DNA of 64,000 nt. It comes from a virus. The notes beneath the pieces are model-generated. The model worked only from the letters and a program-made list of their open reading frames with translations. It ran no database searches and was not told where the DNA came from. The position numbers and the translations under genes were made by a program. Below are positions 3,777-47,199 of this stretch, one piece after another (position 1 is the first letter of the stretch; the number at the start of each line of letters is the position of its first letter). Location: IMG/VR virus record IMGVR_UViG_3300024255_000002; one strand, given 5' to 3'.

Positions 3777-5642
3777 ATGGCATCACACAAATTAAATATT
3801 TCAGAGTTAGACTTTGATAACATCAAAGAAAATCTAAAAAGATTTCTTTCAAATCAAAATCAATTTAAAGATTATGACTTTGAAGGTTCTGGTATGGCAG
3901 TGTTGCTAGATTTATTAGCATACAACACACACTATCTATCATATCACACAAACGTTGCTGTCAATGAAATGTTTATTGACTCTGCTGATTTAAGAAATAG
4001 TATTGTTTCATTAGCAAAGGCATTAGGATACACACCTAGTTCGGCAACGGCATCTTATGCCGACATTAATGTAAGAGTGAATGATGGAACAGGTGGTTCA
4101 ATTACTATGCCTGTTGCAACAAAATTTACAACAACAGTTGACGGAACAAGTTATTCATTTGTAACTTCCGCTAATCATACAATTGCACCAATAGATGGTG
4201 TTTACGAATTTAAAAATATAAAAATTTATGAAGGAACTTATGTAACGTTTAACTATACAGAAAATTCTTCAGATGTAGATCAAAGATTTATTATACCATC
4301 GGCAAATGCTGATACAACTACACTAACTGTTGAAGTTCAAAATAGTGCAACTGACACAGTTATACAAACTTACAATAGAGCAACATCAATAACTGAATTA
4401 GATGGTGACTCAAAAGTTTATTTCTTACAAGAAGCTGAAGATGGTAAGTTTGAAGTTTATTTTGGTGATGGTATTATCGGAAAAAAATTAGACGATGGTA
4501 ATATTGTTAGATTAAAATATGTTGTAACTAACAAAGATGCTGCTAACGGTGCTTCAACATTTACTTTGGCAAGTAACATACAAGGATTTAATGAATTTAC
4601 ATTAACTGTAAACTCAAATGCTGCTAACGGTGCCGATGCTGAAACGGATGCAAGTGTTAAATTTCATGCACCTAAATTTTATGCGTCACAAGATAGAGCA
4701 GTTACAGTTGAAGATTATAAAGTTAAAGTTAATCAACTATATCCAAATGCACATTCAATTAGTGCTTGGGGTGGTGAAGACAATGCAACACCATATTATG
4801 GAAAAGTTTTTATATCTATCAAACCAAAATCAGGTTCTAACTTAACATTAACAACAAAAAGAGATATTGTTAATACATTAAAAAAATATTCAGTTGCTTC
4901 AGTAAGACCAGAAATAATTGATCCTGAAATTACTAAAATTATTTTAACTTCAACTATTAAATATGACGACAGATCAACAACAAAATCTGCCGATGATATT
5001 AAAACAGATGTAATTTCTAATTTAGAAAGTTTTAACGATAACACATTACAAATGTTTGATAGTATGTTTAGGTATTCAAAATTATCTGAAACTATTGATG
5101 ACACAGACAACTCAATACTTTCAAATATTACAAAAGTGAAAATAAGAAAATCATTTACACCATCTTTAGATACATCAATTAACTACAACGTTTCATTTTC
5201 AAATTCATTTTATAATCCACATATAGGTCATGCTAGTGGCATGGGAGGAGTTTTACTTTCTTCAGGATTTAGAGTTTCAAATAGCAATGAAATTATGTAC
5301 TTAGATGATGATGGTAATGGTAATCTAAGAAGATTTTACAATTCAACATCAACAACTGGATTAAAAGTTTATGTTGACAATAATGCTGGAACAATTAATT
5401 ACCAAACAGGTGAAATTAAAATAAATGCTTTAGTTATAACTAGTGTTGAGAATATACGAGGTTCTGCTTCAACTTCAATTGAGCTAACTGTTCAACCACA
5501 ATCTAACGACATTGTTCCTTTAAGAAATCAAATAATAGAATTAGATGTTGCAAATAGTTCGATCAATGTCGAAGTTGATACGTTTGTTGGTGGTTCAGCA
5601 AATGCAGGAGTGGGATATTCAACAACATCAAGTTATAGTTAA
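3777..5642 (+). CDS. gp6: Baseplate wedge subunit gp6
   Basis: LDFDNIK, DYDFEGSG, LLAYNTHY, FGDG, QDRAVTVEDY, WGGEDN. Confidence 0.95.
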   Translation: MASHKLNISELDFDNIKENLKRFLSNQNQFKDYDFEGSGMAVLLDLLAYNTHYLSYHTNVAVNEMFIDSADLRNSIVSLAKALGYTPSSATASYADINVRVNDGTGGSITMPVATKFTTTVDGTSYSFVTSANHTIAPIDGVYEFKNIKIYEGTYVTFNYTENSSDVDQRFIIPSANADTTTLTVEVQNSATDTVIQTYNRATSITELDGDSKVYFLQEAEDGKFEVYFGDGIIGKKLDDGNIVRLKYVVTNKDAANGASTFTLASNIQGFNEFTLTVNSNAANGADAETDASVKFHAPKFYASQDRAVTVEDYKVKVNQLYPNAHSISAWGGEDNATPYYGKVFISIKPKSGSNLTLTTKRDIVNTLKKYSVASVRPEIIDPEITKIILTSTIKYDDRSTTKSADDIKTDVISNLESFNDNTLQMFDSMFRYSKLSETIDDTDNSILSNITKVKIRKSFTPSLDTSINYNVSFSNSFYNPHIGHASGMGGVLLSSGFRVSNSNEIMYLDDDGNGNLRRFYNSTSTTGLKVYVDNNAGTINYQTGEIKINALVITSVENIRGSASTSIELTVQPQSNDIVPLRNQIIELDVANSSINVEVDTFVGGSANAGVGYSTTSSYS

Positions 5643-5644
5643 AA

Positions 5645-8230
5645 ATGGCAGACTTAAAAGATAAAATCTCAACCTTTATAGAAACTCAATCACCTGATTT
5701 TGTGCTTGAGGATCATCCGTATTTTTTAGAGTTTGTAAAACTTTATTATCAATTCTTAGAAGCTGCTGAATTATCACTTATAAAAATTAACGACCCTAAT
5801 ATTATTCAATTAGAAAATCCTGTTGTAACTAGTTTCATGCAATTAAATGGAACTAATCGTACAAAGGATGACGGAGAAGATAATCTATTAATGGAAAACT
5901 CTCCTGTTGGAGATTTTATTAATGGTGAAGTTATCAAAGGAAGAATATCTGGTGCTCAAGCAACTGTAATAGTTGAAGACACAGATGCTGGTTCTCGTTT
6001 GTTTATAACATCACAAAACAAATTTAAAATAGGTGAAGAAATTTACGGACTAACTTCAGGCGCCGAAGCAACAATATCAAAGTACAGACCAAATCCAGTT
6101 CAAAGTATTCATCAACTTTGTGAGTATTCTGATCCCGATGGAACATTAGATCAATTTTTAATAAACTTTAGAAATGCATTTTTAAATTCTATACCTGAAA
6201 AACTTGCTGATGGTTTAGATAAGAAAACTTTAGTTAAAAATATAAAATCATTCTATGAAGCAAAAGGAACTAAAAGAGCAAGTGAGCTAATCTTTCAATT
6301 ACTTTTTAACATACCTGCTGAAATCAGATATCCAAGAGATAATATTTTAAGAGCATCTGATGGTAAGTGGGAAACTAAAAAAGTGATGAGAGCATTAGAA
6401 GTAGGATTTTCTGATGCTGGTAAATTAGTTGGTCAAACTATTACACAATTTAAAACTAATCTAGTAGGTAAGGCAACGGCAATTGTTGAAAGTGTTGTAA
6501 AATATCCTATTGGTGGAAAGATTGTTGTTGAGTTAGTTTTAGGATATGATTCAATTGTAGGTGACTTTGTTCCTGGTGCAAGAATTATAGGATCAAGTAA
6601 CACAGACGAAGATGATTTAATTGTTTTAAATTCATCTGGTATTATTACTGAAAAAGTTATTACATCAAATGGTGCTTTGTATAATGAAAATGATTTAATA
6701 CAAACAACAGGCGGTGGTACAGGTGCATTATATTCAGTTGGACCTGTAGGATTAGGTTCACTTGAAGATTTAATTGTAGATGAAGGTGGAACAGGATACG
6801 AAATAGGTGATCTTGTTAATTTTAGTATTGGAAATGCCGAAGCAAAAGTATCAGTAGTTAATGGTGGATTTACACAAGAGGAATCTTCTTCATCAACTGA
6901 TGATCATATTGTATTAGAAGATGAAACAACAAAAAGTGATCCATACACAGGAAATAAAATTGTACAAGAGACAAGTACAGGTGTAGGTGATATAACAGAT
7001 TTAAGATTTTTAAATAACGGAAATGGATTTAGTTCCATTCCTACAATAACAGTTACATCATCAAGTGGTAATGGTGCTAAGATATTAACTTATGGTAGTC
7101 AAATAGGAAGAGTACTGACATTTAAAGAATTAGAGTTAGGATTTAATTACGAAAATTCGCCAACTCCTGCAACAATGACAATGCCATCTTATCTTGTATT
7201 AACAAATGTTGTTGGTGCATTTTCATCATTGCAAACAGTAACAGCATTAGGATCAGATGGTTCAACAGTTGTTTCAGGTACAGTTGTATCTTATGATGTT
7301 AACACACAAATTTTAAAAGTAAAAGAAACAGATGGACTATTTGGAACAAATGTTACATTAACAGGACCTGGTGGTTCTGCTACAATTGTTAGACATAGTC
7401 AGGCAACAGTTACAGCAACAGTTGATGTAGTAAGTGAAACATCTGGCAGATTTTTAAATACTGATGGTTGGGTTTCTGAATCAACTATGGTATTACAAGA
7501 CAGTTTATTATACCAAGATTATTCTTATATCATTAAAGTTGGTAGATCAATCAATGATTGGAGAGACGCATACGAGAAGGCTGCTCACCCAGCAGGTTTC
7601 TATTATATTGGAGAAGTAGATATACAATCCAGATTAAGTGGAAGAATTAGACCTATAGTTGGAACAACACCTGGTTTTGATTCACTAATCAAGTTAATCT
7701 TTGGAACATTGTTAGGAAGAAGATTAGGAACAACAACAGATGGCACTTCATTAAGAACTGATCCAAAATTAGGTGTTCCGTTTGATTTAGATCCGTCAAC
7801 ACATGATCACTTCCCAACTAAAACAAGAGACGTAACTGTATTTGCACCACCTATAAGTTACGATATTGTAAGTAGAGTTAAGAGAACAATATTTAATTCA
7901 GACGGAACAGGAATATTAGTTAAACAAGGTTTTGGTTTAGGACCAAGATATAAGACACTTAACAAATATGCTAATACGGCATTTGGTGGGGCAACGAATT
8001 CAAGTGTATTACAAAGTGTTAATACATTTAAACCAATAGGGGAACTGAAAGTTCAACATACTAGATCATCTTTAAATGGTGGTGAGGCTGTGTTTATTAT
8101 GACTTCAACAAGTGGTGGCCAACAACTTAAAACTAAGTTTACATTACCAGCAAATATAACAACATCGCCTAAGTTTGATACTACAACAACTAGATGGTCA
8201 TCAACTAAGAAGAAGATGGATAGAGTATAG
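5645..8230 (+). CDS. gp7: Baseplate wedge initiator gp7-like
   Basis: Follows gp6; FLEFVKLYYQFLE, KGTKRA, ASDGKW, LQDSLLYQDYSY, HPAGF. Confidence 0.75.
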   Translation: MADLKDKISTFIETQSPDFVLEDHPYFLEFVKLYYQFLEAAELSLIKINDPNIIQLENPVVTSFMQLNGTNRTKDDGEDNLLMENSPVGDFINGEVIKGRISGAQATVIVEDTDAGSRLFITSQNKFKIGEEIYGLTSGAEATISKYRPNPVQSIHQLCEYSDPDGTLDQFLINFRNAFLNSIPEKLADGLDKKTLVKNIKSFYEAKGTKRASELIFQLLFNIPAEIRYPRDNILRASDGKWETKKVMRALEVGFSDAGKLVGQTITQFKTNLVGKATAIVESVVKYPIGGKIVVELVLGYDSIVGDFVPGARIIGSSNTDEDDLIVLNSSGIITEKVITSNGALYNENDLIQTTGGGTGALYSVGPVGLGSLEDLIVDEGGTGYEIGDLVNFSIGNAEAKVSVVNGGFTQEESSSSTDDHIVLEDETTKSDPYTGNKIVQETSTGVGDITDLRFLNNGNGFSSIPTITVTSSSGNGAKILTYGSQIGRVLTFKELELGFNYENSPTPATMTMPSYLVLTNVVGAFSSLQTVTALGSDGSTVVSGTVVSYDVNTQILKVKETDGLFGTNVTLTGPGGSATIVRHSQATVTATVDVVSETSGRFLNTDGWVSESTMVLQDSLLYQDYSYIIKVGRSINDWRDAYEKAAHPAGFYYIGEVDIQSRLSGRIRPIVGTTPGFDSLIKLIFGTLLGRRLGTTTDGTSLRTDPKLGVPFDLDPSTHDHFPTKTRDVTVFAPPISYDIVSRVKRTIFNSDGTGILVKQGFGLGPRYKTLNKYANTAFGGATNSSVLQSVNTFKPIGELKVQHTRSSLNGGEAVFIMTSTSGGQQLKTKFTLPANITTSPKFDTTTTRWSSTKKKMDRV

Positions 8231-8240: not shown

Positions 8241-8248
8241 TATAAATA
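8241..8248 (+). promoter_or_regulatory. T4-type late promoter
   Basis: TATAAATA in the intergenic gap. Confidence 0.75.
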
Positions 8249-8272: not shown

Positions 8273-11200
8273 ATGTCAAAACAATTAATCAATATAGGAA
8301 CATTACCCAACGATAACACTGGTGACCCGATTAGAGACGGTGGTGATAAAATTAACGATAATTTTAATGAAATCTACGGTGCAATCGGTGATGGTTCTAC
8401 TTTATCAATTGACGTTTCAAATCCTGTAAACGGTGAGGCATTAATATATAACTCATCAACAGGCAAGTTTGAATCAAACTCAATTGGTGCCGTTCTTTCA
8501 ACACTTACAATTACAGACGATTCATCATCTTCTATAGGTATTGATTTAACAACTGATCAATTAGATGTTACTGGTGGATTAGGTATTGTTTCATCTGTTA
8601 CAGGTACTCGATTAAAATTAGATATTGATCAATCAATTGTAATTACACAAACAGGAACAGAAACATTATCTAATAAAACACTTGATGGTCTTTCAAATAC
8701 ATTTACAAATATACCAAACTCTGCTTTAGTAAATTCAGAATTAACAATAATGGATAGCACATCAACTACTGATTCAGTAGCACTTGGTGAAACTCTACAT
8801 ATAACAGGAGGCAGTACTATCACAACTTCAGTTGCCAACAATGTTTTAACAATTGACTTGGCACCTGCTTTTAAAGAATTCACAATAAGAGATAGTTCAT
8901 CAACTACTGATACAGTAGCACTTGGTGAAACTTTACATATAACAGGAAGTAACGCTATCACAACTTCAATTGCCAACAATGTTTTAACAATTGATTTGGC
9001 ACCTGCTTTTAAATGTACAACTTTAGGAACAACCGTATTAGAATTAGGATGTACAACAACTTGCTTAGAAGGCCTTACTTGTTTTGATTTAGCGTCTGGC
9101 GCTGAAATGAGATTAAGAGGATATCATCCTCTGGGACAATGCAACGTTGCTATTGGTACAACAGCAGACATACCAAACGCTGCTAACGCAAACTGTAACG
9201 TCTCTATAGGATATAATGCATTATGTGGTATTGTTGACGGAACAAATAACATTGCTATAGGAGTAAATGCTCTTTGTGGAATTTCAGATGGATATTGTAA
9301 TATTGCATTAGGTAAGTCTGTTTTGACAAAAGCAGCTCACGGATGCAATAACGTTGCAATTGGGGCAAACATTATGGGAAGCATGTGTGCTGCTTCTAGT
9401 TGCAATGTGTCTTGCAACATTATGCTTGGAGTTAGTTTATTTGATAGTACAAATCCAAGTACATTTACCAGAAATATTGTATTTGGGCAACAAAGTGGTA
9501 ATTGTGTTACTTCTAATGCTCAGGAAAACGTTATTATTGGACGATGTAATTTTCGTAATGCAGTTAGTAACGTTAGTTATAATGTTGCTATAGGTAGAGG
9601 TGCTAGTGGAAATGCTACAGGAAATGATAATATTAGTATTGGAACATCCGCTGGTGAAAACTCAATAACTGGTTATCAAATTGCTATCGGAAGAAGTGCA
9701 GCTTCAAGGGTACAAACATGCTCTGATTGTTGGCAGTGTACTGGAGCAAATAGTTTAACAACAGGCAATCCACCTGCTGTATGTTCTAGTTATAGTGGTA
9801 TTCCAAATTGGTCAAGTAACAATAAGTATGGATGTAACTTTGAACAAACAGCAAACCTTGCAATTGGTAATTTTGCAATGAACTGTGTTTTGTTTGCCGA
9901 TACCAATGTCGTTATAGGACACAATGCGGCTGGGGCTACATGTAATAATACTTTATGTGGAGTTGACACAGGACTTAAAGATTCAGTTGTTTTAGGTAAT
10001 ACTTCAGCAATGAACAATACGCTTGAGGGATCAATTGTTATTGGTAATAGAGCATTTACTTGTATGTGTGATATGTCAGGTGTTCACAATGGAAATCAAG
10101 TACCAACTTTAGCACATTCATTTAACGATGTAATTATTGGAACTGATGCTCTTCAAAGTATTGATGCCAATACATGCTCTTCTGGATGTAACTCATGTGA
10201 AAACGTAGTTTTGGGGGCATATGCCGCTCAACATGTAAGAGGACTAAGTGGTTCAGTTATTATTGGTGCTTGTGCTTATCAATGTGATTTTACTTCCCCG
10301 TTCCATGATGATGTTACAACTGGTGTTGTAGTAGTTGGTGAGGACGGAATGAACAGTTTTTCTTCAACTGATTATTCACCTTGGATAACTGCTGTTGGCG
10401 CTAGTGCTGGACTTTTTACATCATCTGGAGCAGGTATTACTTTACTCGGAACAAATACTTTTGCAAACAATTCACTTTCAGCTTATGGTATGGTTGTGGT
10501 CGGAGACAATGCTCACACGGGTCCATCACATGGTGATTTTGGTGTTGCAAATAACACAATTGTAGGTTCTCATGCTGCTAATAGTTTACATCAAGGATGT
10601 TCAAGTATTGATAGAACTGGATTTAACACTATCATAGGTTCTCATGCAGCTACTGGATTAACTAATTTCATTGATGGACCATCGGGACCTTATTGGTGCT
10701 CTAGTGTTTATGATTTGCGAGATGGATGTAATAACATTATTATAGGATATGCAGCTGCACCATCAGCACAAATTGTTGATGATGAAATTACAATTGGTAA
10801 CCCAGCAAATACAAAATTTAGATTACCTGGTGTTCAGGCAAGTGCTGTAGATGGCCAAGTCTTAACACATAATGCTTCAACAGGATACTTAGAATTACAA
10901 GACGCAGGTGGTGGAACATTAAACGTAATAGATGATAGTTCAACTGCTGTTGCGATAACATTATCAACTGAACAATTACAGATTGCTGGTGGGGCAGGTA
11001 TTACAACATCTGCTTCTGGTAATACAATTACAATATCAAACTCAGCATCTGGTTCTTTAAGTGTATTAGACGATAGTTCAACATCAATTAGTATAGATTT
11101 AGGAACTGAAAGTTTAACACTTGTTGGTGGAACAGGAATTACAACATCTGCTTCAGGCAACACAGTAACTATTGCTAAAAGTTCTAACTCATACAGTACA

Positions 11201-11398
11201 CAGAAATTTACAGGTGATGAATCAACAAGTGCATTTACATTAAATCAAAGTGGAAGAACTGTTGATGATGTATTTGTAATTGTAAATGGAATAGTTTTAG
11301 TTCCAACAGATGACTATACAATTTCAGGAACAACATTAACTTTCGTTCTTGCCCCATCGGCAAGTTCAGAAATACAAGTAAGGTATTTACCTCTATAA
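8273..11398 (+). CDS. Baseplate-anchored tail fibre with a gp9/gp10-like N-terminus and a Cys-rich YadA-like beta-roll
   Basis: MSKQLINIG..PNDNTGDPIRDGGDKINDNFNEIY; many NxAIG repeats; 33 Cys counted. Confidence 0.85.
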   Translation: MSKQLINIGTLPNDNTGDPIRDGGDKINDNFNEIYGAIGDGSTLSIDVSNPVNGEALIYNSSTGKFESNSIGAVLSTLTITDDSSSSIGIDLTTDQLDVTGGLGIVSSVTGTRLKLDIDQSIVITQTGTETLSNKTLDGLSNTFTNIPNSALVNSELTIMDSTSTTDSVALGETLHITGGSTITTSVANNVLTIDLAPAFKEFTIRDSSSTTDTVALGETLHITGSNAITTSIANNVLTIDLAPAFKCTTLGTTVLELGCTTTCLEGLTCFDLASGAEMRLRGYHPLGQCNVAIGTTADIPNAANANCNVSIGYNALCGIVDGTNNIAIGVNALCGISDGYCNIALGKSVLTKAAHGCNNVAIGANIMGSMCAASSCNVSCNIMLGVSLFDSTNPSTFTRNIVFGQQSGNCVTSNAQENVIIGRCNFRNAVSNVSYNVAIGRGASGNATGNDNISIGTSAGENSITGYQIAIGRSAASRVQTCSDCWQCTGANSLTTGNPPAVCSSYSGIPNWSSNNKYGCNFEQTANLAIGNFAMNCVLFADTNVVIGHNAAGATCNNTLCGVDTGLKDSVVLGNTSAMNNTLEGSIVIGNRAFTCMCDMSGVHNGNQVPTLAHSFNDVIIGTDALQSIDANTCSSGCNSCENVVLGAYAAQHVRGLSGSVIIGACAYQCDFTSPFHDDVTTGVVVVGEDGMNSFSSTDYSPWITAVGASAGLFTSSGAGITLLGTNTFANNSLSAYGMVVVGDNAHTGPSHGDFGVANNTIVGSHAANSLHQGCSSIDRTGFNTIIGSHAATGLTNFIDGPSGPYWCSSVYDLRDGCNNIIIGYAAAPSAQIVDDEITIGNPANTKFRLPGVQASAVDGQVLTHNASTGYLELQDAGGGTLNVIDDSSTAVAITLSTEQLQIAGGAGITTSASGNTITISNSASGSLSVLDDSSTSISIDLGTESLTLVGGTGITTSASGNTVTIAKSSNSYSTQKFTGDESTSAFTLNQSGRTVDDVFVIVNGIVLVPTDDYTISGTTLTFVLAPSASSEIQVRYLPL
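8741..9013 (+). repeat. 138-bp (46-aa) internal tandem duplication in the fibre gene
   Basis: Two near-identical units TTD(S/T)VALGETLHITG...ITTS(V/I)ANNVLTIDLAPAFK. Confidence 0.9.
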
Positions 11399-11408
11399 GG
11401 AATAAAAT

Positions 11409-12584
11409 ATGGGACAAATAACAAGAACATTTCCAAACTTTCTTCTTCCTAATGGAACAGTAGAAATACAAGGACAACAAGAAGATCCAAATCCAACATT
11501 GGCAGGTGACTTAGATGTTTCAACACAGGCAATAATATCTACTAATGATGGTGATATTAATATCACTCCTGATGGAACTGGAAGTATTGTATTAGATGGA
11601 TTATCTTGGCCACAATCAGATGGTTCTGCAAATCAACTTATATCAACTGATGGTGCTGGTAATCTTATTTTTACAGATAATACAATTACAATAAGAGACG
11701 CAAGTTCAACAACAGACACAGTTGCTTTAGGAGAAATCTTAACTATACAAGGAACAAATGGAATTTCAGCAAGTGTTACAAGTAACACAATAACAATTGA
11801 TGGTGCAAATATTAACTCATACACAGACTCAGACGTTGACGCACATATAAACACATCATCTGCTACAATTAATCAATATTTAACTTGGTCAGGAACAGAT
11901 TATGTTTGGGCACCACCTCCATCAACTCCAAATCAATATACAGACTCAGACGTTGATACACATTTAAATCAATCATCTGCTTCTACTAATCAAGTATTAA
12001 GTTGGAGTGGAACAGATTATGCTTGGGTAACACAAACAGCTCCAACAACACTTGGTGCTTTAACAGACGTAAATACTTCAAGTATAGATAATGGTTATTT
12101 AGTTTATTCAGCAATAGCAGGATCACATAATGTACAAGCATTAAATATTGAACATGATACATCACCTTCTTTAGGTGGAGATTTAGATACTAATGATAAA
12201 AACATTACTGGTGGTTTAAAATTATCTGATAGTGGAATTATTGAATCATTTTTAACATCATCTGGTGCGGCTTCAACAATTAATCTATCTGCTTTAGTGT
12301 CTCATAGTTTATTTCTTAGTGGTGCATCTAATAATAAAACTTTAAATGTAACTAATTTATCATTATCGTCTGCACAAGGAACTAATATTACAGCAATATG
12401 GAATCAAGGTTCAACACCTTATATGATAACTGTATTAAATGTTAATGGTACAAGCACTACAATTAATTGGCAAGGTGGTTCAACACCATCTGGCACTGCT
12501 AATGGTGTAGATATAATTTCATTTACAATCTACTACACAGGAAGTTCTTATGTTGTTACAGGACAATCTGTTAGTTTCTCATAG
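11409..12584 (+). CDS. Tail fibre / virion structural protein
   Basis: DPNPTLAGDLD, PQSDGSANQ, duplicated YTDSDVD-H-N...WSGTDY unit, C-terminal WQGG.TPS...DII domain. Confidence 0.75.
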   Translation: MGQITRTFPNFLLPNGTVEIQGQQEDPNPTLAGDLDVSTQAIISTNDGDINITPDGTGSIVLDGLSWPQSDGSANQLISTDGAGNLIFTDNTITIRDASSTTDTVALGEILTIQGTNGISASVTSNTITIDGANINSYTDSDVDAHINTSSATINQYLTWSGTDYVWAPPPSTPNQYTDSDVDTHLNQSSASTNQVLSWSGTDYAWVTQTAPTTLGALTDVNTSSIDNGYLVYSAIAGSHNVQALNIEHDTSPSLGGDLDTNDKNITGGLKLSDSGIIESFLTSSGAASTINLSALVSHSLFLSGASNNKTLNVTNLSLSSAQGTNITAIWNQGSTPYMITVLNVNGTSTTINWQGGSTPSGTANGVDIISFTIYYTGSSYVVTGQSVSFS

Positions 12585-12592
12585 GAGATAAC

Positions 12593-13456
12593 ATGGGTTC
12601 GTCATTTAGTTCAATAGGACATTCAATGGGAAGAAGAGCAACTTCTTCACCTGCCACTCCATGGGCACCATCTGATTTAGGATCTCTTGCTTGGTGGGTT
12701 GACATTGATGATAGTAGTAGTAGATCAACATCAGGAACTACAATAATAGGATTAACAGATAAGGCTGGAAAACACAGTTTTGATATAGGTGGTACTCCAA
12801 CAATTGTAACTAATGGATTAAATAGTAGAGACGTTGCAGATTTTAATGGTAGTAGTGAATATATCCAAAGTGGAAGTTATACAAATAGTCAAGTTAGTAG
12901 TGGTAATCACTGGTCCGTGGGAGTGTTTCAATATCATGGAACAAACTCTAGCCAAGATTCATTTTGGTCAGTAGAAACTAATCAAAGTCCAAAAAGAGAT
13001 TATGCCATAAGTTCAGGTGCGAGTAATAATACTTGGCCTGGAGAATTAGATTTAGATGGACTATCTTCAAATAGAATCAGTTCAGTAATTGGTAATCTTC
13101 AACAATGGAATCTTTTAAGTTTATCATCTTTCAATTGGTATATTGTCGGTGTATTTTTTAATAAATCAGGAAATCAAATCGGTCTTAGAGTAAATGGTCA
13201 AAACGCATTTAATCCAGTAAATGATTATGATAACTCTTTACAGACAAATCAACAAGTAAGATTTATGAGAAATAGATCATCACAAGAATTAGACGGAAGA
13301 ATGGCAGAATCACTTGCTTATGCAAGACAACCAGGAACAAGTGGTACTGATATGAGTTACTTTGAAATTGCTGAAGGATACTTGGCACATAAATGGGGAT
13401 TAACTGGTGGTTTGCCAAGTAATCATCCTTATAAGTCTTCGGCACCTACTGTTTAA
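12593..13456 (+). CDS. LamG/concanavalin-like receptor-binding protein
   Basis: W.PSDL...WVDIDD, EGYLAHKWGL..LP..HPYK C-terminal motif. Confidence 0.65.
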   Translation: MGSSFSSIGHSMGRRATSSPATPWAPSDLGSLAWWVDIDDSSSRSTSGTTIIGLTDKAGKHSFDIGGTPTIVTNGLNSRDVADFNGSSEYIQSGSYTNSQVSSGNHWSVGVFQYHGTNSSQDSFWSVETNQSPKRDYAISSGASNNTWPGELDLDGLSSNRISSVIGNLQQWNLLSLSSFNWYIVGVFFNKSGNQIGLRVNGQNAFNPVNDYDNSLQTNQQVRFMRNRSSQELDGRMAESLAYARQPGTSGTDMSYFEIAEGYLAHKWGLTGGLPSNHPYKSSAPTV

Positions 13457-13460
13457 GGGA

Positions 13461-13470
13461 CGTATATATA
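13461..13470 (+). promoter_or_regulatory. Late-promoter variant CGTATATATA
   Basis: Same 10-mer at 24000 and 30409. Confidence 0.5.
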
Positions 13471-13504
13471 CTATTATTAAATTATTAAAAATTATGGAGT
13501 TATT

Positions 13505-14416
13505 ATGACATTAGACACTTATATAGTTGAAGGTGGAGTTGGTAAATGTTCAACGTTCACATCACTAGTAGATAAATTAACCGAAAAGGCAGGACAACCA
13601 ATACAAGTTTATACACCTTATGTTGGATGTTTTGCAAACAATCCAAATGTTAAATTAGCATTTGAACAAACAGTTCCTTTAAACGATAAAAGAATAATGA
13701 GTAGTGATAATATTTACTATTCAGAACCTTACAAATCAAATTTTCAATTTGGTGATCAACATTTGATTGAAGCATACAGTAAGTTACATGGTGTTGAATT
13801 TGAAAGAAGTATGGTTCCTAAAATGTTTACAGATCATTTAAAAGAATCAGTAGATAAATGGTTACTAGATAATAAAATTAACGATTATATTTTAATTCAG
13901 TTCTCTGGTGGTCAAAGTAGTTGGACAGGTGGCGCCGCTAATACTCCATATAATAATAATAATCCTGGCCGTATCTATCCACAATACTTAGCACAAACAG
14001 TTATTAACACAATCAAACAAGAATATCCCAAATTGACTATTATTGATTGTACATTACCAAATGAACCAAGTTATCAAGGAACTATCAAATGTCCTTTACA
14101 TTGGTCACAGTTACATGAATTACTTAAAAACGCAAAAGCATTTATCGGTATAGATTCATGTTTACAGCATTTTGCTGCTTCAACTAAAACAAGAGGTGTC
14201 ATTGTTTGGGGAAGTACAAGATGGACTCAATTTGGTTATACACATCATAAAAACTTACAATTTCATATGGGGAATAAGTGGAATGACAACAAATACGACC
14301 CTAGTGATCCTCGTAATATCATGGTAGAACCAGGAAAAGTATATGAGTCGTTCAAATCTATTATAGATCACCCTAAAGATAAAGATAAAATAGATGTAAA
14401 ATGTTCTTCGGAATGA
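13505..14416 (+). CDS. GT9-like (ADP-heptose/heptosyltransferase-type, GT-B fold) glycosyltransferase
   Basis: N-terminal GGVGK loop; FIGIDSCLQHFAA...VIVWGST...FGY signature. Confidence 0.85.
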   Translation: MTLDTYIVEGGVGKCSTFTSLVDKLTEKAGQPIQVYTPYVGCFANNPNVKLAFEQTVPLNDKRIMSSDNIYYSEPYKSNFQFGDQHLIEAYSKLHGVEFERSMVPKMFTDHLKESVDKWLLDNKINDYILIQFSGGQSSWTGGAANTPYNNNNPGRIYPQYLAQTVINTIKQEYPKLTIIDCTLPNEPSYQGTIKCPLHWSQLHELLKNAKAFIGIDSCLQHFAASTKTRGVIVWGSTRWTQFGYTHHKNLQFHMGNKWNDNKYDPSDPRNIMVEPGKVYESFKSIIDHPKDKDKIDVKCSSE

Positions 14417-14472: not shown

Positions 14473-15996
14473 ATGCCAGCAATAGTAACAAACAAATTTA
14501 GACTTAATAATGCCGAAAACTTTAGAGAGTCTTTCACAGAAACAAACCCTAATTACTACTATCTAGGTATCGGTAGAATTAGAGAATATGGTACTTTTAC
14601 AAGACCTGACGGAAGAACAGATTTTGAAGGTACTGAAACTATACCAGAAACTCCTGGTGATAGTGTAATAAACGAATTTAACAACTTTGATGAATTAATC
14701 GCTGCCAAAAGAATAACTGGTAACGATGTAGCATTAGTATGTCCAAGAAGAAATTGGATATCTGGAACAGTTTATGATATGTATAGACACGATTATGAAG
14801 AATATGTTCCTAATAGTTCATCAACAAGAAGAACATCAAATAGTGGTGCAACAACTTTGTTTGACGCATCCTACTATGTACTCACAACAGCAAGAAATGT
14901 TTACAAGTGTTTAGATAATAACAACGGTGCTACTTCAACAGTAGAACCAACTGGAACATCTACTACACCTTTTATAATTATGTCTGACGGATATAGATGG
15001 AAATACATTTACACATTAAGTGCTGCTCAACAAGTTAATTTCTTATCAACTGATTTTATGCCTGTGGCAACTGATTCTACTATTGCGGCTGCAGCCACTG
15101 ACGGAAGACTAGATGTTGTTTCTGTTGCAAATGGTGGAACTGGTTTTACAATTAACGGTGGTGGTTCTTCAGGAACTATTACAGGTGTTCCAATAAGAGG
15201 TGACTATTCTGCAAACGGTGGTTCTGCTGCCGAGTGTGAAGTAACTATACAAAGTGGTATTGTGACTTCAATTAATATCACATCAAATGGATCAGGATAC
15301 ACATATGCTTATATCACAGACGCTGATATTATTGCTGGAACAAATGCTGGTGGGACTGGTTCAGGTGCTGAACTAGATGTAATTATTCCACCTAAAGGTG
15401 GTCACGGTGCAAATGCTCCTGCTGAGTTAGGTGCTTTCTTTGTGATGATGACTACTACTTTAGAAGGAACTGAAAATGCCAATTCATTAGGAACTGGTGA
15501 CTTCACTGCTGCTAACGATTTTAGAAAAATCTCTTTAATTAAAGACCCTAAAGATCCAAACGGAACTGACTTAACTGATATTACAGCTAGAGGAACTTTT
15601 GCTGTTAAACTTTCTGCTTCTCCATCTCCAGGAACATTCTTAGTAGATGAAGAAATAAACCAGGCAACAACAGGTGCAACTGGTAAAGTAGTTGAGTGGG
15701 ATTCTTCAAACAATATTTTATACTTTTCACAGTTTAGACACAACGATGCTGGTGTCTCTACAAGTGGAGATCAAGTGCCATTTAGTGGTTCAGGTGTAAT
15801 TTCTGCTCCTGGTTCAAGTGCAACAGGAACTCCTGATATATCTACACAAACTATAAACGCTGTTTCGTTTATAAGTGGTTATTCAGTACCAGAAATTAAA
15901 CATGACTCTGGTGATGTTTTATATGTTGAGAATAGAGTTAGAATTGCAAGAGCTATTGATCAGACTGAGAATATAAAATTAATTATCGAATTTTAA
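14473..15996 (+). CDS. gp8: Baseplate wedge subunit gp8
   Basis: PRRNW..GTVYDMY, VYKCLDN, DGYRWKYIY, SGDVLYVENR, QTENIKLIIEF. Confidence 0.92.
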   Translation: MPAIVTNKFRLNNAENFRESFTETNPNYYYLGIGRIREYGTFTRPDGRTDFEGTETIPETPGDSVINEFNNFDELIAAKRITGNDVALVCPRRNWISGTVYDMYRHDYEEYVPNSSSTRRTSNSGATTLFDASYYVLTTARNVYKCLDNNNGATSTVEPTGTSTTPFIIMSDGYRWKYIYTLSAAQQVNFLSTDFMPVATDSTIAAAATDGRLDVVSVANGGTGFTINGGGSSGTITGVPIRGDYSANGGSAAECEVTIQSGIVTSINITSNGSGYTYAYITDADIIAGTNAGGTGSGAELDVIIPPKGGHGANAPAELGAFFVMMTTTLEGTENANSLGTGDFTAANDFRKISLIKDPKDPNGTDLTDITARGTFAVKLSASPSPGTFLVDEEINQATTGATGKVVEWDSSNNILYFSQFRHNDAGVSTSGDQVPFSGSGVISAPGSSATGTPDISTQTINAVSFISGYSVPEIKHDSGDVLYVENRVRIARAIDQTENIKLIIEF

Positions 15997-24013: not shown

Positions 24014-24742
24014 ATGAATATATTATTGACAGGAAGTGATGGATTTATAGGACAAAATCTACACGATCATTTTAAAGAAAATCATAACATAATCTGTTTA
24101 GATAAATCGTCAGGTAATGATTTATTAAATTGCGACTTAAAACATAATGTCGATTTAGTAATTCACTTGGCAGGTTTGTCAGGTGTGAGAGATAGTTTAA
24201 ATAACCCAACAGAATATTGGACAAACAATGTAATTGCTGGGCAAAGATTATTTGACTTTTTTAAAGATACAAGAATATTATATGCCAGTTCTTCAACAGC
24301 ACATGAACCATGGCGTAATCCATATGCAATTAGTAAATATGCTTTAGAGTTAATCGCACCAACAAATAGTGTTGGTATGAGATTTACAACTGTTTATGGG
24401 CCTAATGCTAAAAAGGATATGTTAATTCCTAGAATATTAAGAAACGATGTTCCTTTTATTCATACAAATCATACAAGAGATTTTATTCATGTAAATGATA
24501 TTATAAGTGCTATTGAAACTTTAATGAGTTCAGATTTTACAGGTGCCTTAGATATTGGAACAGGAGAGACCAATAACTTAGTTCAACTTGTAGATTACTT
24601 TGGAATAGAGTGTGAGAGATTGGTGGGAAAAGAAAACGAGAGATTAGATAATAAAGCAGACATAAGTATATTAAAAAATTTAGGATGGAAACCTAAAGTT
24701 GATTTATACAGTTATATAGAGGATCAAAGACATGCTAACTAA
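24014..24742 (+). CDS. NAD-dependent nucleotide-sugar epimerase/dehydratase (extended SDR)
   Basis: TGSDGFIG, HLAG, ASSS, YAISK, RFTTVYGP, RDFIHV. Confidence 0.92.
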   Translation: MNILLTGSDGFIGQNLHDHFKENHNIICLDKSSGNDLLNCDLKHNVDLVIHLAGLSGVRDSLNNPTEYWTNNVIAGQRLFDFFKDTRILYASSSTAHEPWRNPYAISKYALELIAPTNSVGMRFTTVYGPNAKKDMLIPRILRNDVPFIHTNHTRDFIHVNDIISAIETLMSSDFTGALDIGTGETNNLVQLVDYFGIECERLVGKENERLDNKADISILKNLGWKPKVDLYSYIEDQRHAN

Positions 24743-25223
24743 AGAATACTTAAAAGATAATTTTATCACGGCATATTTCTGTGATGAAGATAGAAAGTTT
24801 ATTGAAATACTAGCAACAAGTGAAGATAAAAAAGAAACATACCCAACAGTAATACCTTTTGATGAAAACGAACCACAATATAAAATTTTATTAGAGTTTG
24901 TTACTTTAGATGATTTGCATGAAATAACATATAAGAGAAAACAAGAAGAAAGAAAAGATTATGAGACTGCTGTATTAGAGATAGCAAAAAATGAAGGATT
25001 AGTCTTAGAGAATAATAAAGTTGATACAAAGTTTTTTAATCTGTTAGTAAAAACTGTTTTTGAAGAAAAATCTGAAGACAAAGAGGAATTGTTTACACTG
25101 AAGATTGCTTTGTTTGAGTTAGATAAAATAAAAAACTCTAAGAACACTAAGTTAAAAACTAAGTTAAGAAAATCTCAAACTATCTATGATACATTGTCTG
25201 TGGCATTTGAACTGACAAAATAA
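24732..25223 (+). CDS. Hypothetical protein
   Basis: 163-aa ORF overlapping the epimerase end. Confidence 0.7.
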   Translation: MLTKEYLKDNFITAYFCDEDRKFIEILATSEDKKETYPTVIPFDENEPQYKILLEFVTLDDLHEITYKRKQEERKDYETAVLEIAKNEGLVLENNKVDTKFFNLLVKTVFEEKSEDKEELFTLKIALFELDKIKNSKNTKLKTKLRKSQTIYDTLSVAFELTK

Positions 25224-25768
25224 TCTTTCCACCATCCAGACCACCCCTCATCCATAAGATGTTTGTTTTGATTTAAAAGACATATACTGTGGTCTTTATT
25301 TTTAGTTTCATCTTCTTGTATTGAATAACAGACTTTATCGTAGGTATTATATTTTAATTCTCTATAATAAAATTCATCACTGCCTTTCCAATACTTTGTC
25401 ATATAGTATTCTTCATCACTTTTAAACTTATTCCATATGTGTGATACATCACCAGTCCATGATACAATTGATGAGTTTAAAGGAGTATGATAAGGTTCTC
25501 TCCACCAAGCATGTAATAATGTAAAATCCTTTCTTATTAGATTAGGAACTTTATTGTATATTACCATATCTAAATCAAAGTATAGATTTTCACCGTCTCT
25601 AAATCTATCATACATTTGAAACTTGTTATACCAGTTACCATACAGATCATCTTCAATAACTTCAAAACTATCATACTTTAGGCCAGAATAGTTATCAATC
25701 ATATGTTTAAGATTTTTAACATGCCAGTTGGTATATTTTTTACCAAATCTACAACAAATTATTCTCAT
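25184..25768 (-). CDS. GT-A fold glycosyltransferase
   Basis: GKKY, WYNKFQ, LYFDLD (DxD), LNSSIVSW; ATGA coupling at 25765-25768. Confidence 0.8.
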   Translation of the reverse strand: MRIICCRFGKKYTNWHVKNLKHMIDNYSGLKYDSFEVIEDDLYGNWYNKFQMYDRFRDGENLYFDLDMVIYNKVPNLIRKDFTLLHAWWREPYHTPLNSSIVSWTGDVSHIWNKFKSDEEYYMTKYWKGSDEFYYRELKYNTYDKVCYSIQEDETKNKDHSICLLNQNKHLMDEGWSGWWKDYFVSSNATDNVS

Positions 25769-26511
25769 TTCCAATACCTCTTTATCCAATCTTCTTTAGA
25801 TGTGTGAATGTTACTATCGGGATTTGCAAAATGTATTATCTTTAACTTAGGATTAGGTTTGTCTAATATCATATAATCAGTATCAAACATTTCTGAATAC
25901 TTTACATTATATTGTAAGTTTGTTTTTTCATTATTAGTATATTTACCTATCCACTCTTTAGGCATAAGAGTTATTTTACCTTTGTTATATCTTATAGTAT
26001 TTTCAACGTGATTTTGTTCCCCATAGTATTTGTGATGAACAATGCCTTTGTTGTAGTATCGAAGTTGATAATGCTCTACATTTTTTATAAATTCATTCCA
26101 AATATATTTAAAACTTCCTGATTTAAATTTATACCAACCACCATTAAGAGTTAGTTTGGTATCATTCCACCACTTACCATACGATACTAACTCATTATCA
26201 TCAACAGGATAACCTATCATTTCATCTATATTACCAACTATAACTTGATCTATATCCATAATGATTATTTCATCACCTGGTTTCTGATAAGCAAATAGTG
26301 GTGAGAAAAATGCAAGTTTATGCCAATGTAGTTTAATATCTGAATGTTTTGGTAAAGGTATTACTATATCTGCTTTTACGTTGGGATTGTCACTGTAACA
26401 TATAAACTCAAATGGTATAGTGCTATTTCTTTTTAAACCATTGTATAGCTTTTCAACATAGTCTGGTGTGTATTTTCCTTCAAAATATACTGTACAAATT
26501 TTAATACTCAT
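25765..26511 (-). CDS. GT-A fold glycosyltransferase
   Basis: GKYTPDYVEKLY, WHKLAFF, MDIDQV (DxD), GEQ, IIHF. Confidence 0.82.
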   Translation of the reverse strand: MSIKICTVYFEGKYTPDYVEKLYNGLKRNSTIPFEFICYSDNPNVKADIVIPLPKHSDIKLHWHKLAFFSPLFAYQKPGDEIIIMDIDQVIVGNIDEMIGYPVDDNELVSYGKWWNDTKLTLNGGWYKFKSGSFKYIWNEFIKNVEHYQLRYYNKGIVHHKYYGEQNHVENTIRYNKGKITLMPKEWIGKYTNNEKTNLQYNVKYSEMFDTDYMILDKPNPKLKIIHFANPDSNIHTSKEDWIKRYWK

Positions 26512-27637
26512 TCCACATCTCTCTCCAGTTAAAATTTCTATGTTTTGACAAGTCATCACAATACTGTTTCATTCTAGTATTATTAATATCCACAGGTTCT
26601 AATAATAACTCACTTAATATAAATTCAAGGTCTTTATGATTTTTGTATTTTTGTTTAATAGTTTCTTTTTGTTCTTTATTTAAGTTTCTTATCGAAAGAT
26701 GTTTGGGACCTCTAACTATATTAACAAACGTTGTGTGGACATTAAAGTTTTTCATATAGTAATCATATATTTCATTTAAATCAAATATATTTAATAATGA
26801 AACTGTACAATTTAATTGGTGTATTAAACTATGAGCCTCTTTTATGTTTGCCTCAAATTTTAATCTATCTATTGGATATCTTATCCAATCTAACTTTTTA
26901 CCATAGTGATCGCATGAAACACCCAATTTTATATTTTCAAATTTTTCTACATAATCAAATATAGATTTATCTTTATATCTTAATTCAGTTAAATTTGTGT
27001 CATAAGATAATTTTATATGTTTTGCATGTTCATTAGGTATTAAATCTAAAAATTGCCAATGTTTGGGAAGTTGTAATGGCTCACCACCAGTAATATTCAT
27101 ATAAGAAACTAGATGTATATTATCCAATATATCTTTTGTTATGTCATTCCATTGTTTATGTTTTACTGATTTAAAAGTTTCTCCCCATATACCTTTTTCA
27201 CCATAGATTTGTTTTAATTCATTTCTTCTTGTAGATGAGTTATATGGATGACACATATAGCATCCTAAGTTGCAATACGATCCGTGTATTCTTAATTTTA
27301 GGCCTACGTTTTTCACTTCCATATCAACACCATACTTGTTGAGATATTTGCCATTTCTATAGGAAACTCCTATGTCTTCTTCAAGTTTATAGCAGGTTTT
27401 ACACGCATCAATTTTTTCACCCAATATCGTTTTATTTCTTATTTCTTCCATTTCAGGTGAGTTAAAAAATTCAAAGGGTGTTGTATTTTCAGTTGTATAT
27501 TTTTTCAATCCATTTGTAGGTTTAGCATGACAACACAATTTGTATCTACCAGCATTATCTGCATATATTTCTTTAAAAGGCATAGCACAATATGATTTAT
27601 TTTTTTCGTAAAATTCTTTAATAAAGGACTTTGACAT
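26501..27637 (-). CDS. Radical SAM enzyme with an N-terminal twitch/SPASM-like Cys cluster
   Basis: CNLGCYMC, TGGEP, YDTN; N-terminal CAMPF...LCC...CKTC. Confidence 0.9.
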   Translation of the reverse strand: MSKSFIKEFYEKNKSYCAMPFKEIYADNAGRYKLCCHAKPTNGLKKYTTENTTPFEFFNSPEMEEIRNKTILGEKIDACKTCYKLEEDIGVSYRNGKYLNKYGVDMEVKNVGLKLRIHGSYCNLGCYMCHPYNSSTRRNELKQIYGEKGIWGETFKSVKHKQWNDITKDILDNIHLVSYMNITGGEPLQLPKHWQFLDLIPNEHAKHIKLSYDTNLTELRYKDKSIFDYVEKFENIKLGVSCDHYGKKLDWIRYPIDRLKFEANIKEAHSLIHQLNCTVSLLNIFDLNEIYDYYMKNFNVHTTFVNIVRGPKHLSIRNLNKEQKETIKQKYKNHKDLEFILSELLLEPVDINNTRMKQYCDDLSKHRNFNWREMWNEY

Positions 27638-27638
27638 T

Positions 27639-28715
27639 TTAAGATCCACAGTGCTTTGAACATTGGGGTACAGGACTATCACTATTCCAACTGTCAGGCA
27701 ACTTCTTTCTAAACCAGTCATTTTTTATAATATCTAATAAGTTGTTATGAAAAACATTGTGACTTTTTTTATATTGATTATAATGTTTAATTAAAGGATG
27801 AGTTACTAAATTATTCTCTTTGTTTGTTATTGAATTAAAAAAATGAGAATTTGCAAAATAACAACACGGCAAAACTTGTCCATCAGGATTTACTAACACT
27901 CTATTGTCAATTTCCCATTTGCAATTAATTTTTTTAAGTTCTTTGGGTGATTTTGATTGTCTTTTTATTGTTGCGACTTGGAAACTTTCATAACTTTCCC
28001 TTCTTATTTTTAATTTTTTATTTTCAATAATTACAGTATTGTCAGGTATATTCTCTTTTACTTCTTCAAGTTTCTGTTCTTTTCCTTTACTATCTACAAA
28101 TGTAAAAGGATTTCTCCTCGTCCATCTATCTGTATAAATGTGTAGATGGTGTTTTGATCCATTTTCATAACAAAGTTTTTCTATATCTTTTAAATAAGGT
28201 TTATTGTGTTTAAACATAAGTGTTTGTGTTCTTATATTAGCCTTTGTATTAGATATGATTTGCATATTATTAAGTATTTTATCTAAGAAAGTTTTTTGTC
28301 TATACAACTCATGCATTTTTTGATCTATACCCTCAACTGCAAAAGTAACAGTTAATCTTTTACCACCAATAACACCAAGTTCCCACCAAAAATCACTATC
28401 TCTTAAAGACCCATTTGTGTGAATAGAGATATATATTTTTTTATTTGTTTCTCTAATATATTTAATAATCTCTAAAAAATCTTTATTGATAATAGGGTCT
28501 CCCCATGTACCACATATTGTTATTTTTGCAACAACTTCAATTACATTTTTAGGATATGCCTTTTTAAATTGTTCTAAAGACCAATCTATTGTTGGCAACC
28601 ATTCAGCAGTTTTACACTTATTGTCGGGATTTGTTCTATGGCACATTGGGCAACCAGCATTACAGTTAGTTGTTATATCAACAAATACATCTAAATTATA
28701 CGAACTAAGTTGCAT
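27639..28715 (-). CDS. Radical SAM enzyme with a C-terminal SPASM/twitch domain
   Basis: CNAGCPMC, GTWGDP, HTNGS; C...VNPDGQVLPCC...CSKHC. Confidence 0.9.
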   Translation of the reverse strand: MQLSSYNLDVFVDITTNCNAGCPMCHRTNPDNKCKTAEWLPTIDWSLEQFKKAYPKNVIEVVAKITICGTWGDPIINKDFLEIIKYIRETNKKIYISIHTNGSLRDSDFWWELGVIGGKRLTVTFAVEGIDQKMHELYRQKTFLDKILNNMQIISNTKANIRTQTLMFKHNKPYLKDIEKLCYENGSKHHLHIYTDRWTRRNPFTFVDSKGKEQKLEEVKENIPDNTVIIENKKLKIRRESYESFQVATIKRQSKSPKELKKINCKWEIDNRVLVNPDGQVLPCCYFANSHFFNSITNKENNLVTHPLIKHYNQYKKSHNVFHNNLLDIIKNDWFRKKLPDSWNSDSPVPQCSKHCGS

Positions 28716-29547
28716 TGAAATAACCTTCAAATTTTTTGTTTATAACATGTAATATTTTAGAGTTAGATATATTGTCATTTTCCATTATCATGTCGTGCCA
28801 AGTTTTAGGTAAGTTGTTCCACTCTATATTATTTTTTTCTAAAAGATATGTAAAAAATGTTTCATTGTTAGGTTCATATAGAGAACTTATAGTATTTCCA
28901 AAATATTCTTCATTCTTTGCTTTGTTTAAAAGATCAATTAAGTTATTTAAATTTTTCATTAACTGTATTTTTTTTAATTGTTTACTACTTGCACATATTA
29001 TTCCTGTATTGATAACTTCATAAGTCACATCATAATTATCGTTTGCAAAAAGCATAGACTGTTTTGCCAGTGCTTTAATATACATACTATACTTATCAAA
29101 ATGAGTATTGATTATATAATCATAAGTTTTTCTTTTTTTATTTTTTCCAATTAAGGCATCTTTGGGCCATGTATTTTTAACTGTTGAATTTACTGAACGA
29201 ACATTTATCTTACTCATATCAAATTCTTCAAAAAAAGATTGATTGGTGTTTGGTATAACATCAAAGTCTAAGTATAGAATATTATCATATTTCTCAAAAA
29301 GATTTTCATATAAGAAATGTTTATAAAAGTTTAATGTATCAAACTCATATAGATTATACTCACTTTTAAATTTATCATAAACTTCATCCTGCCCAAACAT
29401 AATAAATTCAGCATTACATTTTTTTGCATATTCTTTTTTAACATTTAATAAATCACTATAATAAGATTTCAGTTTATTCTTAGTGTTTGTGTGCTTTGAG
29501 TTGTTAGGTTCAATATCAATATAAAAACTATAAATCACATTTTTCAT
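28705..29547 (-). CDS. GT-A fold glycosyltransferase
   Basis: NFYK, LYLDFDV, INTGII, NETFF, HVINK; paralog of 29528..30406. Confidence 0.8.
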   Translation of the reverse strand: MKNVIYSFYIDIEPNNSKHTNTKNKLKSYYSDLLNVKKEYAKKCNAEFIMFGQDEVYDKFKSEYNLYEFDTLNFYKHFLYENLFEKYDNILYLDFDVIPNTNQSFFEEFDMSKINVRSVNSTVKNTWPKDALIGKNKKRKTYDYIINTHFDKYSMYIKALAKQSMLFANDNYDVTYEVINTGIICASSKQLKKIQLMKNLNNLIDLLNKAKNEEYFGNTISSLYEPNNETFFTYLLEKNNIEWNNLPKTWHDMIMENDNISNSKILHVINKKFEGYFNAT

Positions 29548-45769: not shown

Positions 45770-45770
45770 T

Positions 45771-46948: not shown

Positions 46949-46951
46949 ATA
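46944..46951 (+). promoter_or_regulatory. T4-type late promoter
   Basis: TATAAATA. Confidence 0.7.
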
Positions 46952-46974
46952 GTATATAAAAAAGGAGAATAGAA

Positions 46975-47199
46975 ATGGCAACTATAGATAAATTAAACAA
47001 AGTTATTTCAACAACAACTAAAGTTTCTGAATCAAGTAAATCTGATTCTGTTAAGAAACAGAGATTTTTAAGAAAAAAGGAAAGACTTAATAGAATTAAA
47101 TCAAATGATACTAAGTTTTCTTCTTTAAGTGCTGAAGAACAAACACGTTTAAATACACACATTACTACATTAGATACTAAAATAGCAGAATTATCGTAA
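46975..47199 (+). CDS. Small basic hypothetical protein
   Basis: AAGGAG RBS and an upstream late promoter. Confidence 0.75.
   Translation: MATIDKLNKVISTTTKVSESSKSDSVKKQRFLRKKERLNRIKSNDTKFSSLSAEEQTRLNTHITTLDTKIAELS

Follow-up and report, generated by a model that had tools for sequence, protein, structure and literature searches.

Why should a phage fibre be studded with cysteine, and what is a glycosyltransferase (GT) gene doing beside it? Both questions are raised by the IMG/VR virus record IMGVR_UViG_3300024255_000002, a stretch of 64,000 nucleotides (nt) referred to here as the window. Its source is a T4-like Pelagibacter (SAR11) myophage, and Pelagibacter phage Mosig is the nearest cultured relative. 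Four genes between a gp7-like gene and gp8 encode the fibre, P0001, two further proteins, P0003 and P0004, and the GT, P0002; coordinates are collected in Table 1. The best-supported function of the GT is decoration of the fibre, which we regard as probable. A narrower proposal, in which the cysteines themselves accept the sugar through an S-link, is advanced tentatively, on the strength of sequence comparisons.

All 33 Cys of P0001 fall between residues 248 and 819 (nt 9014-10729), and residues 1-247 and 820-1041 have none. Cys makes up 5.8% of this core, compared with 0.85% of the other open reading frames (ORFs) of the window when these are pooled (binomial P = 3e-10 for 33 Cys in 1041 residues). 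Neighbouring proteins are as poor in Cys as the initial annotation had stated, with none in the 391-residue protein (11409) or the 670-residue protein (35108), and two in the protein of 2060 residues. The first 94 residues of P0001 match the N-terminal domains of T4 gp9 (1pdp, residues 7-98) and gp10 (PDB 5hx2), and P0001 is therefore read as a fibre anchored at the baseplate. Like the T4 gp9/gp10 connectors, it combines this N-terminal domain with a site amid gp6, a gp7-like gene and gp8.

The Cys-rich core appears in the AlphaFold2 (AF2) model as a series of coils of about 17 residues, each with three short strands. The predicted local distance difference test (pLDDT) score is 65-89 at residues 290-480 and 530-800, and outside these segments the full-length model is poor. 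When coils are anchored on the NxAIG motif, Cys are found at turns, as had been proposed; they follow the "AL" strand, precede the N of NxAIG or follow its G. In P0001 and in every Cys-bearing relative, Cys are confined to three variable corners and never occupy core positions. Two clusters, CxxCxxC (483-489) and CxxxCxxC (635-642), lie in insertions modelled at low confidence, and may be structural or metal sites. The fibre had been described as YadA-like. What it shares with YadA-type head repeats (NSVAIG, a 14-residue left-handed roll) is the NxAIG-type core motif and a beta-solenoid architecture; the wider assignment did not hold, as the period is 17-18 residues rather than 14, each coil has three short strands, and no Pfam YadA or Hep_Hag match was found at E <= 0.1. 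A fold search of the PDB with the fibre model returned only generic solenoid rows, none of them significant.

Orthologues of P0001 show 63-94% identity over the whole protein and 51-90% over the Cys-rich core, with gene order unchanged. More distantly, residues 279-592 share 31% identity with the fibre of Pelagibacter podophage HTVC111P. In one orthologous locus (L038, 5951-10162) the fibre and the 391-residue protein are fused as the 1403-residue P0136, residues 1089-1403 of which are 68% identical to residues 72-391 of P0003. On the basis of this fusion, P0003 is assigned as the distal part of the P0001 fibre, and it probably forms the tip. Because the Cys-rich part is then shaft rather than tip, the earlier suggestion that adducts on Cys mask or retarget receptor binding becomes a conjecture.

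The gene that closes the block had been called GT9-like, and both profile and fold searches bear this out. P0002 scores 28.4 bits against Pfam PF01075, for which the cut-off is 22, with residues 198-257 only in the match. Its AF2 model (pLDDT 76) has as its closest matches by Foldseek the GT9 structure 3tov (E 1.6e-7, template modelling score 0.55-0.59), TibC (4rap, 4rb4), WaaC (2gt1) and WaaF (1psw). Residues 201-248 align with WaaC 245-293. The donor motif D(S/T)GxxHxxAA is kept, reading IDSCLQHFAAS in P0002 and DTGLSHLTAAL in WaaC, so that D217 corresponds to D261 and C/S replaces G. The best matches to families below threshold are lipopolysaccharide (LPS) heptosyltransferases. No GT2 profile matched P0002, and a sequence search of the PDB with the GT profile and the podophage fibre found nothing.

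P0002 is not a member of the TibC/AAH family (BAHT, NCBIfam TIGR04414), for which the cut-off is 200 bits and its score 17.6. Hallmarks of BAHT are an N-terminal beta-barrel of about 97 residues and a four-Cys iron finger inserted in the C-lobe (PMC4358343). The model of P0002 has no such barrel, its first Rossmann strand starting already at residue 4, and has no iron finger. The family to which P0002 does belong has more than 870 metagenome members and falls in Atlas clusters that are essentially all (about 100%) viral. Two branches, one close to P0002 and one distant, have in common the motifs GGxGK, EPY, IDS(C/S)xxH and FGY. A loop at 236-272 is conserved in the family and poorly modelled. 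No Asp is conserved across both branches, the N-terminal domain is not alignable by sequence, and only C219 among the Cys conserved in the close clade persists in the distant one.

Exact copies of the T4-type late promoter box TATAAATA occur ahead of P0001 and again at 14418 and 14449, with none between. On this ground the four genes at 8273-14416 look like a single late transcription unit, and no promoter or terminator signals above chance were found inside the block. The initial annotation had given the GT a promoter of its own, a claim that the sequence does not support: no exact TATAAATA stands before the GT, and only the 10-mer CGTATATATA is found there, at 13461.

We then examined how far the GT and the fibre travel together. 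The GT was found in just two of 50,697 phage records, those of HTVC111P and of a second Pelagibacter podophage, HTVC112P (61-62% identity). Both have lytic genomes of 31 kb in which the GT start overlaps the tail-fibre stop, and their fibre is of the same coil type. In these two phages, in 15 IMG/VR loci and in all contigs with myophage orthologues, the gene for an NxAIG-type fibre either immediately precedes the GT or stands two genes ahead of it. Considering only IMG/VR loci with enough upstream DNA, it follows such a fibre in all except L024-L027. The pairing recurs in at least four genomic contexts. Myophage orthologues invariably have the order fibre, P0003, P0004, GT, P0004 being retained between fibre and GT in every one, and neither P0003 nor P0004 is found in the cassettes of the podophages or of L009 and L010. 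Mosig has neither the Cys-rich core nor the GT, and the corresponding position is occupied by a "tail assembly chaperone". For cultured phages without the GT, Cys content of the homologous fibre is 0% in Kolga, 0.12% in CRP-7 and 0.68% in Venkman.

The initial annotation proposed that co-occurrence of this GT9 clade with Cys-rich fibres be checked across genomes. A sample of 45 loci was fetched with a fibre query (relatives of P0145), blind to the presence of the GT, and the loci were grouped. Fibres had at least 0.5% Cys in 6 of 6 GT-positive groups and in 3 of 25 GT-negative groups, so the predicted association was recovered. GT-positive fibres in this sample ranged from 0.54% to 3.96% Cys, and 22 of the 25 GT-negative groups had 0.42% or less (Fisher P = 1e-4, Mann-Whitney P = 3e-4); pooling all data gave 16 of 16 GT-positive against 9 of 33 GT-negative groups (P = 8e-7), figures tempered by the fact that the groups are not fully independent phylogenetically and most contigs are fragments. 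Homologous fibres overall are in the majority nearly free of Cys and in the minority Cys-rich. No GT-linked fibre had less than 0.5% Cys, and most GT-less homologous fibres had 0-0.4%. One locus (L067) has a fibre with 0.3% Cys and a generic GT9-like gene nearby.

The distant GT branch (26-28% identity; hidden Markov model E 1e-16 to 1e-21) is represented among the GT-positive groups and is likewise found beside Cys-bearing fibres, these having 17-55 Cys and being built of NNFFG...NTTG coils. The GT in this branch is usually next to a sulfotransferase, and in locus L057 it is beside GT2-like genes.

Several Cys-rich fibres are GT-free within about 6 kb, GT-linked fibres span 0.6 to 3.8% Cys, and independence of Cys-richness from the GT was considered as an explanation. 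It was dropped because of three results. When the L114 contig was extended, a distant GT appeared 6 kb downstream of three fibres whose Cys content is 1.2-3.2%; the second Cys-rich fibre of the window, P0245, lies 23 kb from the GT; and on two IMG/VR contigs a locus with the GT and a locus without it occur together.

Mean identity of the core Cys among orthologues is 0.84, compared with 0.72 for all residues, and is second only to that of Gly. By this measure the Cys are under selection. Sixteen of the 33 are invariant across orthologues, and 19 are missing from no more than one of the 13 sequences. Other sites turn over, with 34 variable columns, yet each orthologue retains 31-43 Cys. At the corresponding positions, Cys-poor homologues have variable, small polar residues.

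From these observations we propose the fibre as substrate, its Cys as acceptors, and a heptose as the candidate sugar. In this reading, a small GT9-fold glycosyltransferase specific to viruses came to the baseplate fibre along with a beta-helical shaft built of ~17-residue coils; HTVC111P, HTVC112P and many uncultured phages carry the same cassette of fibre and GT. The GT would be made late, in the fibre's own transcription unit, and would move a sugar from a nucleotide sugar (adenosine diphosphate-heptose, ADP-heptose, is the usual donor for the GT9 family) to exposed corners of the folded coils. TibC and AAH would serve as precedent: they heptosylate the beta-helical adhesins TibA and AIDA-I at turns. 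At the corners of the phage coils, Cys alternates with Ser and other small polar residues. With Cys thiols as acceptors, the sugars would be S-linked and hard for glycosidases to remove, and they may be extended or sulfated by the second GT and the sulfotransferases of the phage.

A number of observations weigh against this proposal. The N-terminal catalytic Asp of related enzymes (D13 in WaaC, D110 in TibC) has no clear counterpart in P0002, whose loop reads GGVGK(C). As far as we know, every GT9 enzyme so far characterised forms an O-glycosidic bond, and S-glycosyltransferases of the known (SunS/ThuS) type belong to GT2. In L024-L027 the neighbours of the GT are 2-oxoglutarate (2OG) oxygenases and a protein resembling collagen, with no NxAIG fibre beside it. 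GT-linked fibres extend down to 0.5-0.9% Cys (L063, L019, L014, L018). Conversely, moderately or strongly Cys-rich fibres occur without the GT in the available DNA (L034, L035, L041, L115), and Cys-rich L036 has a GT1/GT4-type GT instead. NTTG turns reach 71-78% in GT-linked podophage fibres (vs 32-46%), and their Thr or Asn could be the acceptor.

That last point belongs to the strongest alternative, which we rate slightly below the S-link. The GT would place sugar on Ser, Thr or Asn through an O- or N-linkage, TibC-like in the case of the O-link, for example at NTTG turns, and the Cys would be structural, forming disulfide staples once lysis has released the virions into oxic seawater, or metal sites in insertions of the CxxCxxC type. 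Sugar coat and Cys would be two co-selected parts of an "armoured" fibre. GT9 precedent, which is for O-links only (PMC4358343), agrees with this, as does enrichment of NTTG in the GT-linked fibres of both podophage type and NNFFG type; P0001, however, has no NTTG turns and keeps its GT. Cys on the two sides of an NTTG turn behave independently (odds ratio 1.4, P = 0.47). Cys of the window's fibres are not aligned preferentially to Ser or Thr in Cys-free homologues, where N, S, T, A, G and D occur about as composition predicts.

Disulfide staples would be expected to show as Cys conserved and gained or lost in pairs, with even counts. About half of the Cys are fixed, the clusters at 483-489 and 635-642 would suit a structural role, and five pairs of columns co-vary exactly, three of them no more than 19 residues apart. 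This co-variation does not exceed a phylogeny-matched null (P = 0.15). No pairing within coils was detected, whether between the same or different corners, and the excess of Cys at the same corner of adjacent coils is weak and not robust (P 0.03-0.06 by permutation). Cys counts are odd in 10 of the 13 orthologues. Structural Cys also provide no direct reason why the GT never accompanies Cys-poor fibres.

Two points favour the S-link: Cys is the only feature common to all GT-linked fibres, given that P0001 lacks NTTG, and signals of pairing are absent. The suggestion of the initial annotation that Cys are acceptor sites stands in part. The GT travels with Cys fibres, the Cys are conserved at corners, and there is neither a pairing signal nor an even-number bias; GT-less Cys-rich fibres remain at odds with it.

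It is rather improbable that the GT acts elsewhere, on a host envelope glycan or on a virion protein such as P0003 or P0004, and is merely co-inherited with the fibre cassette. LPS heptosyltransferases are its best sub-threshold matches, the GT of L024-L027 stands apart from any NxAIG fibre, and the window has a separate glycan island, all of which would fit another target. Against this, adjacency to the fibre is kept in podophages, in several myophage contexts and in the branch with 26-28% identity, cassettes of podophages and of L009/L010 do without P0003 and P0004, and even the 31-kb lytic podophage genomes retain the GT, overlapping the fibre stop codon.

Still less probable is a protein with a GT fold but no transferase activity, serving as an assembly factor, chaperone or thiol-handling protein for Cys-rich fibres. 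No residue can be recognised as the canonical N-terminal catalytic Asp, the family has its own invariants (GGxGK, IDS(C/S)xxH) and the conserved loop at 236-272, and the "tail assembly chaperone" of Mosig sits at the equivalent place. The donor-binding motif and the GT-B fold are nevertheless retained, and members of the distant branch lie near sulfotransferases, GT2-like genes (L057) and an adenosine 5'-phosphosulfate (APS) kinase (L114), which points to glycan chemistry.

Least probable of all is that the Cys are substrates not of the GT but of the two radical S-adenosylmethionine (SAM) proteins encoded at 26501-28730, one of them with a SPASM domain, which would make thioether cross-links: their family scores are far under peptide-maturase cut-offs except for the generic "twitch" radical SAM family, their homologues are rare in phages and absent from Mosig and other cultured relatives, the genes lie in an apparent sugar-tailoring island, and HTVC111P and HTVC112P have Cys fibres and GT with no radical SAM among the features listed around the fibre genes.

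Comparison with characterised systems places the proposed decoration of the fibre by P0002 closest to TibC/AAH acting on TibA and AIDA-I (GT9; PMC4358343; PDB 4rap, 4rb4). In both cases a GT-B gene of the GT9 family stands beside a repetitive beta-helical surface adhesin, and the phage enzyme, too, would presumably modify turns of already folded coils inside the cytoplasm. Adjacency to a beta-helical protein, which is characteristic of TibC/AAH, is seen for P0002 in nearly all loci, the adjacent protein being its putative substrate. The phage enzyme differs in size, with 303 residues as compared to 406, and lacks barrel, iron finger and equivalog score; its partner is a virion fibre, with Cys in place of Ser as the proposed acceptor. 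WaaC, WaaF and 3tov have the fold and the C-terminal donor motif in common with P0002. Unlike WaaC and WaaF, P0002 has a dissimilar N-terminal acceptor domain without the "GD" catalytic loop, and is virus-only and fibre-linked.

S-glycosylation itself is known from glycocins, where SunS and ThuS act on sublancin and thurandacin, placing sugar on a Cys thiol of a secreted peptide. These are GT2 enzymes (GT-A) with small peptides as substrates, whereas here a GT-B enzyme would modify a large fibre with tens of Cys, so the resemblance is functional only. Mycobacteriophages likewise encode GTs by their structural genes and modify their own virion proteins. The sites there are C-termini of capsid and tail-tube proteins, the bonds are O-links, and other GT families are responsible; here the target would be the fibre of a SAR11 phage, with a possible S-link plus sulfation.

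Other features of the window are listed with the four genes of the block in Table 1.

Table 1. Features of the window, in order of position (residue numbers refer to the encoded protein)
Feature	Position	Strand	Remarks
gp6	3777-5642
gp7-like wedge protein	5645-8230
TATAAATA	8241-8248	+	T4-type late promoter box ahead of P0001
P0001	8273-11398	+	1041-residue baseplate fibre, between gp7-like gene and gp8
P0001, gp9/gp10-like N-terminal domain	8273-8554	+	Residues 1-94; Pfam PF07880, E 6e-11
P0001, Cys-rich beta-helical core	9014-10729	+	Residues 248-819; NxAIG-type coils of ~17 residues plus Cys-cluster insertions
P0003	11409-12584	+	391 residues; distal fibre segment; 0 Cys
P0004	12593-13456	+	287 residues; role unassigned; 0 Cys
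CGTATATATA	13461-13470	+	10-mer, 35 nt before P0002 start; other exact copies at 24000 and 30409
P0002	13505-14416	+	303-residue phage-specific GT9-fold (GT-B) glycosyltransferase
gp8	14473-15996		2060-residue protein comes after
NAD-dependent sugar epimerase/dehydratase	24014-24742	+	Sub-threshold similarity to heptose 6-epimerase
Second glycosyltransferase	25765-26559	-	phrog_1962
Radical SAM enzyme	26501-27721	-
Second radical SAM enzyme	27639-28730	-
P0245	37168-39879	+	Second Cys-rich beta-helical fibre; 903 residues, 34 Cys
Mtd_N protein	39948-40613		221 residues; major tropism determinant N-terminal domain; just past P0245
Sulfotransferase	43727-44521	+	PF00685/PF13469; same family adjoins distant GT branch elsewhere
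Ferrochelatase-like protein	46355-46948		phrog_2954; in modification block 43727-47849
Second sulfotransferase	47217-47849	+	PF03567

The initial annotation overlooked P0245. This protein shows 27% identity to the P0001 core (E 2e-18) and resembles a paralogue. Its best match from a cultured phage is a Cys-free tail fibre of the Pelagibacter siphophage Kolga, with 27% identity over 88% of the length.

A region at 24014-30406 is set off by low GC content (26-28%) and has most of its genes on the minus strand. One of its two radical SAM proteins is of "twitch" type and the other of SPASM type, and besides the enzymes of Table 1 it contains ORFs of unassigned role. Copies of CGTATATATA bound it at 24000 and 30409. 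Homologues of its genes are almost absent from cultured phages. It is possibly an island for glycan supply, with a putative connection to the fibre. A second block of modification genes, at 43727-47849, precedes gp13-gp20, and contains two sulfotransferases, three 2OG-Fe(II) oxygenases and the ferrochelatase-like protein. Both sulfotransferases are possible accessories to fibre glycosylation.

Related gene neighbourhoods outside the window contain further enzymes of modification. At L114 (14002-17250), three Cys-bearing fibres are followed by a sulfotransferase, the APS kinase, a nucleotidyltransferase-like protein, the distant GT9-like enzyme and an Asp/Arg hydroxylase, which looks like a complete kit for sulfation plus glycosylation beside the fibres. 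In the related myophage contigs L024-L027 (5163-10586 in L027), three 2OG-Fe(II) oxygenases, of which one is of prolyl-hydroxylase type, precede the GT, and a protein with collagen repeats and Cys-rich proteins (~320 residues) follow it. The arrangement recalls hydroxylation and glycosylation of collagen, and once more groups fibrous proteins with enzymes that modify proteins. HTVC111P and HTVC112P (L001 246-653, L002 18-404) have a lysine acyltransferase of the HlyC/RTX toxin-activating type directly before the gene for a large tail protein, and may acylate a tail protein too.

Few viruses on Earth are as abundant as SAR11 phages. The HTVC111P-type group is itself globally abundant according to the preprint that describes it, where the GT gene is labelled "GTF" only (10.1101/2019.12.14.876532). 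A literature search found no paper on glycosylation of phage fibres by GT9-like enzymes. Taken at its widest, the proposal is that virion fibres of ocean phages are S-glycosylated at corner Cys, and in some lineages sulfated, by a virus-only branch of GT9, which is possible but falls short of an expectation. Its extension across SAR11 podophages, myophages and many uncultured aquatic phages is to be taken just as guardedly. With HTVC111P and HTVC112P in culture, on Pelagibacter HTCC7211, the hypothesis is directly testable. If true, the fibre would be the first viral glycoprotein with an S-linked sugar, and its enzyme the first S-glycosyltransferase of GT-B type. A bond to Cys would mean a new class of S-glycosylation enzyme, and would account for the class of Cys-studded fibres. 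A phage enzyme that chemically coats the fibre used for host recognition would affect host range, and the coating would affect resistance to proteases and glycosidases and the decay of virions in seawater.

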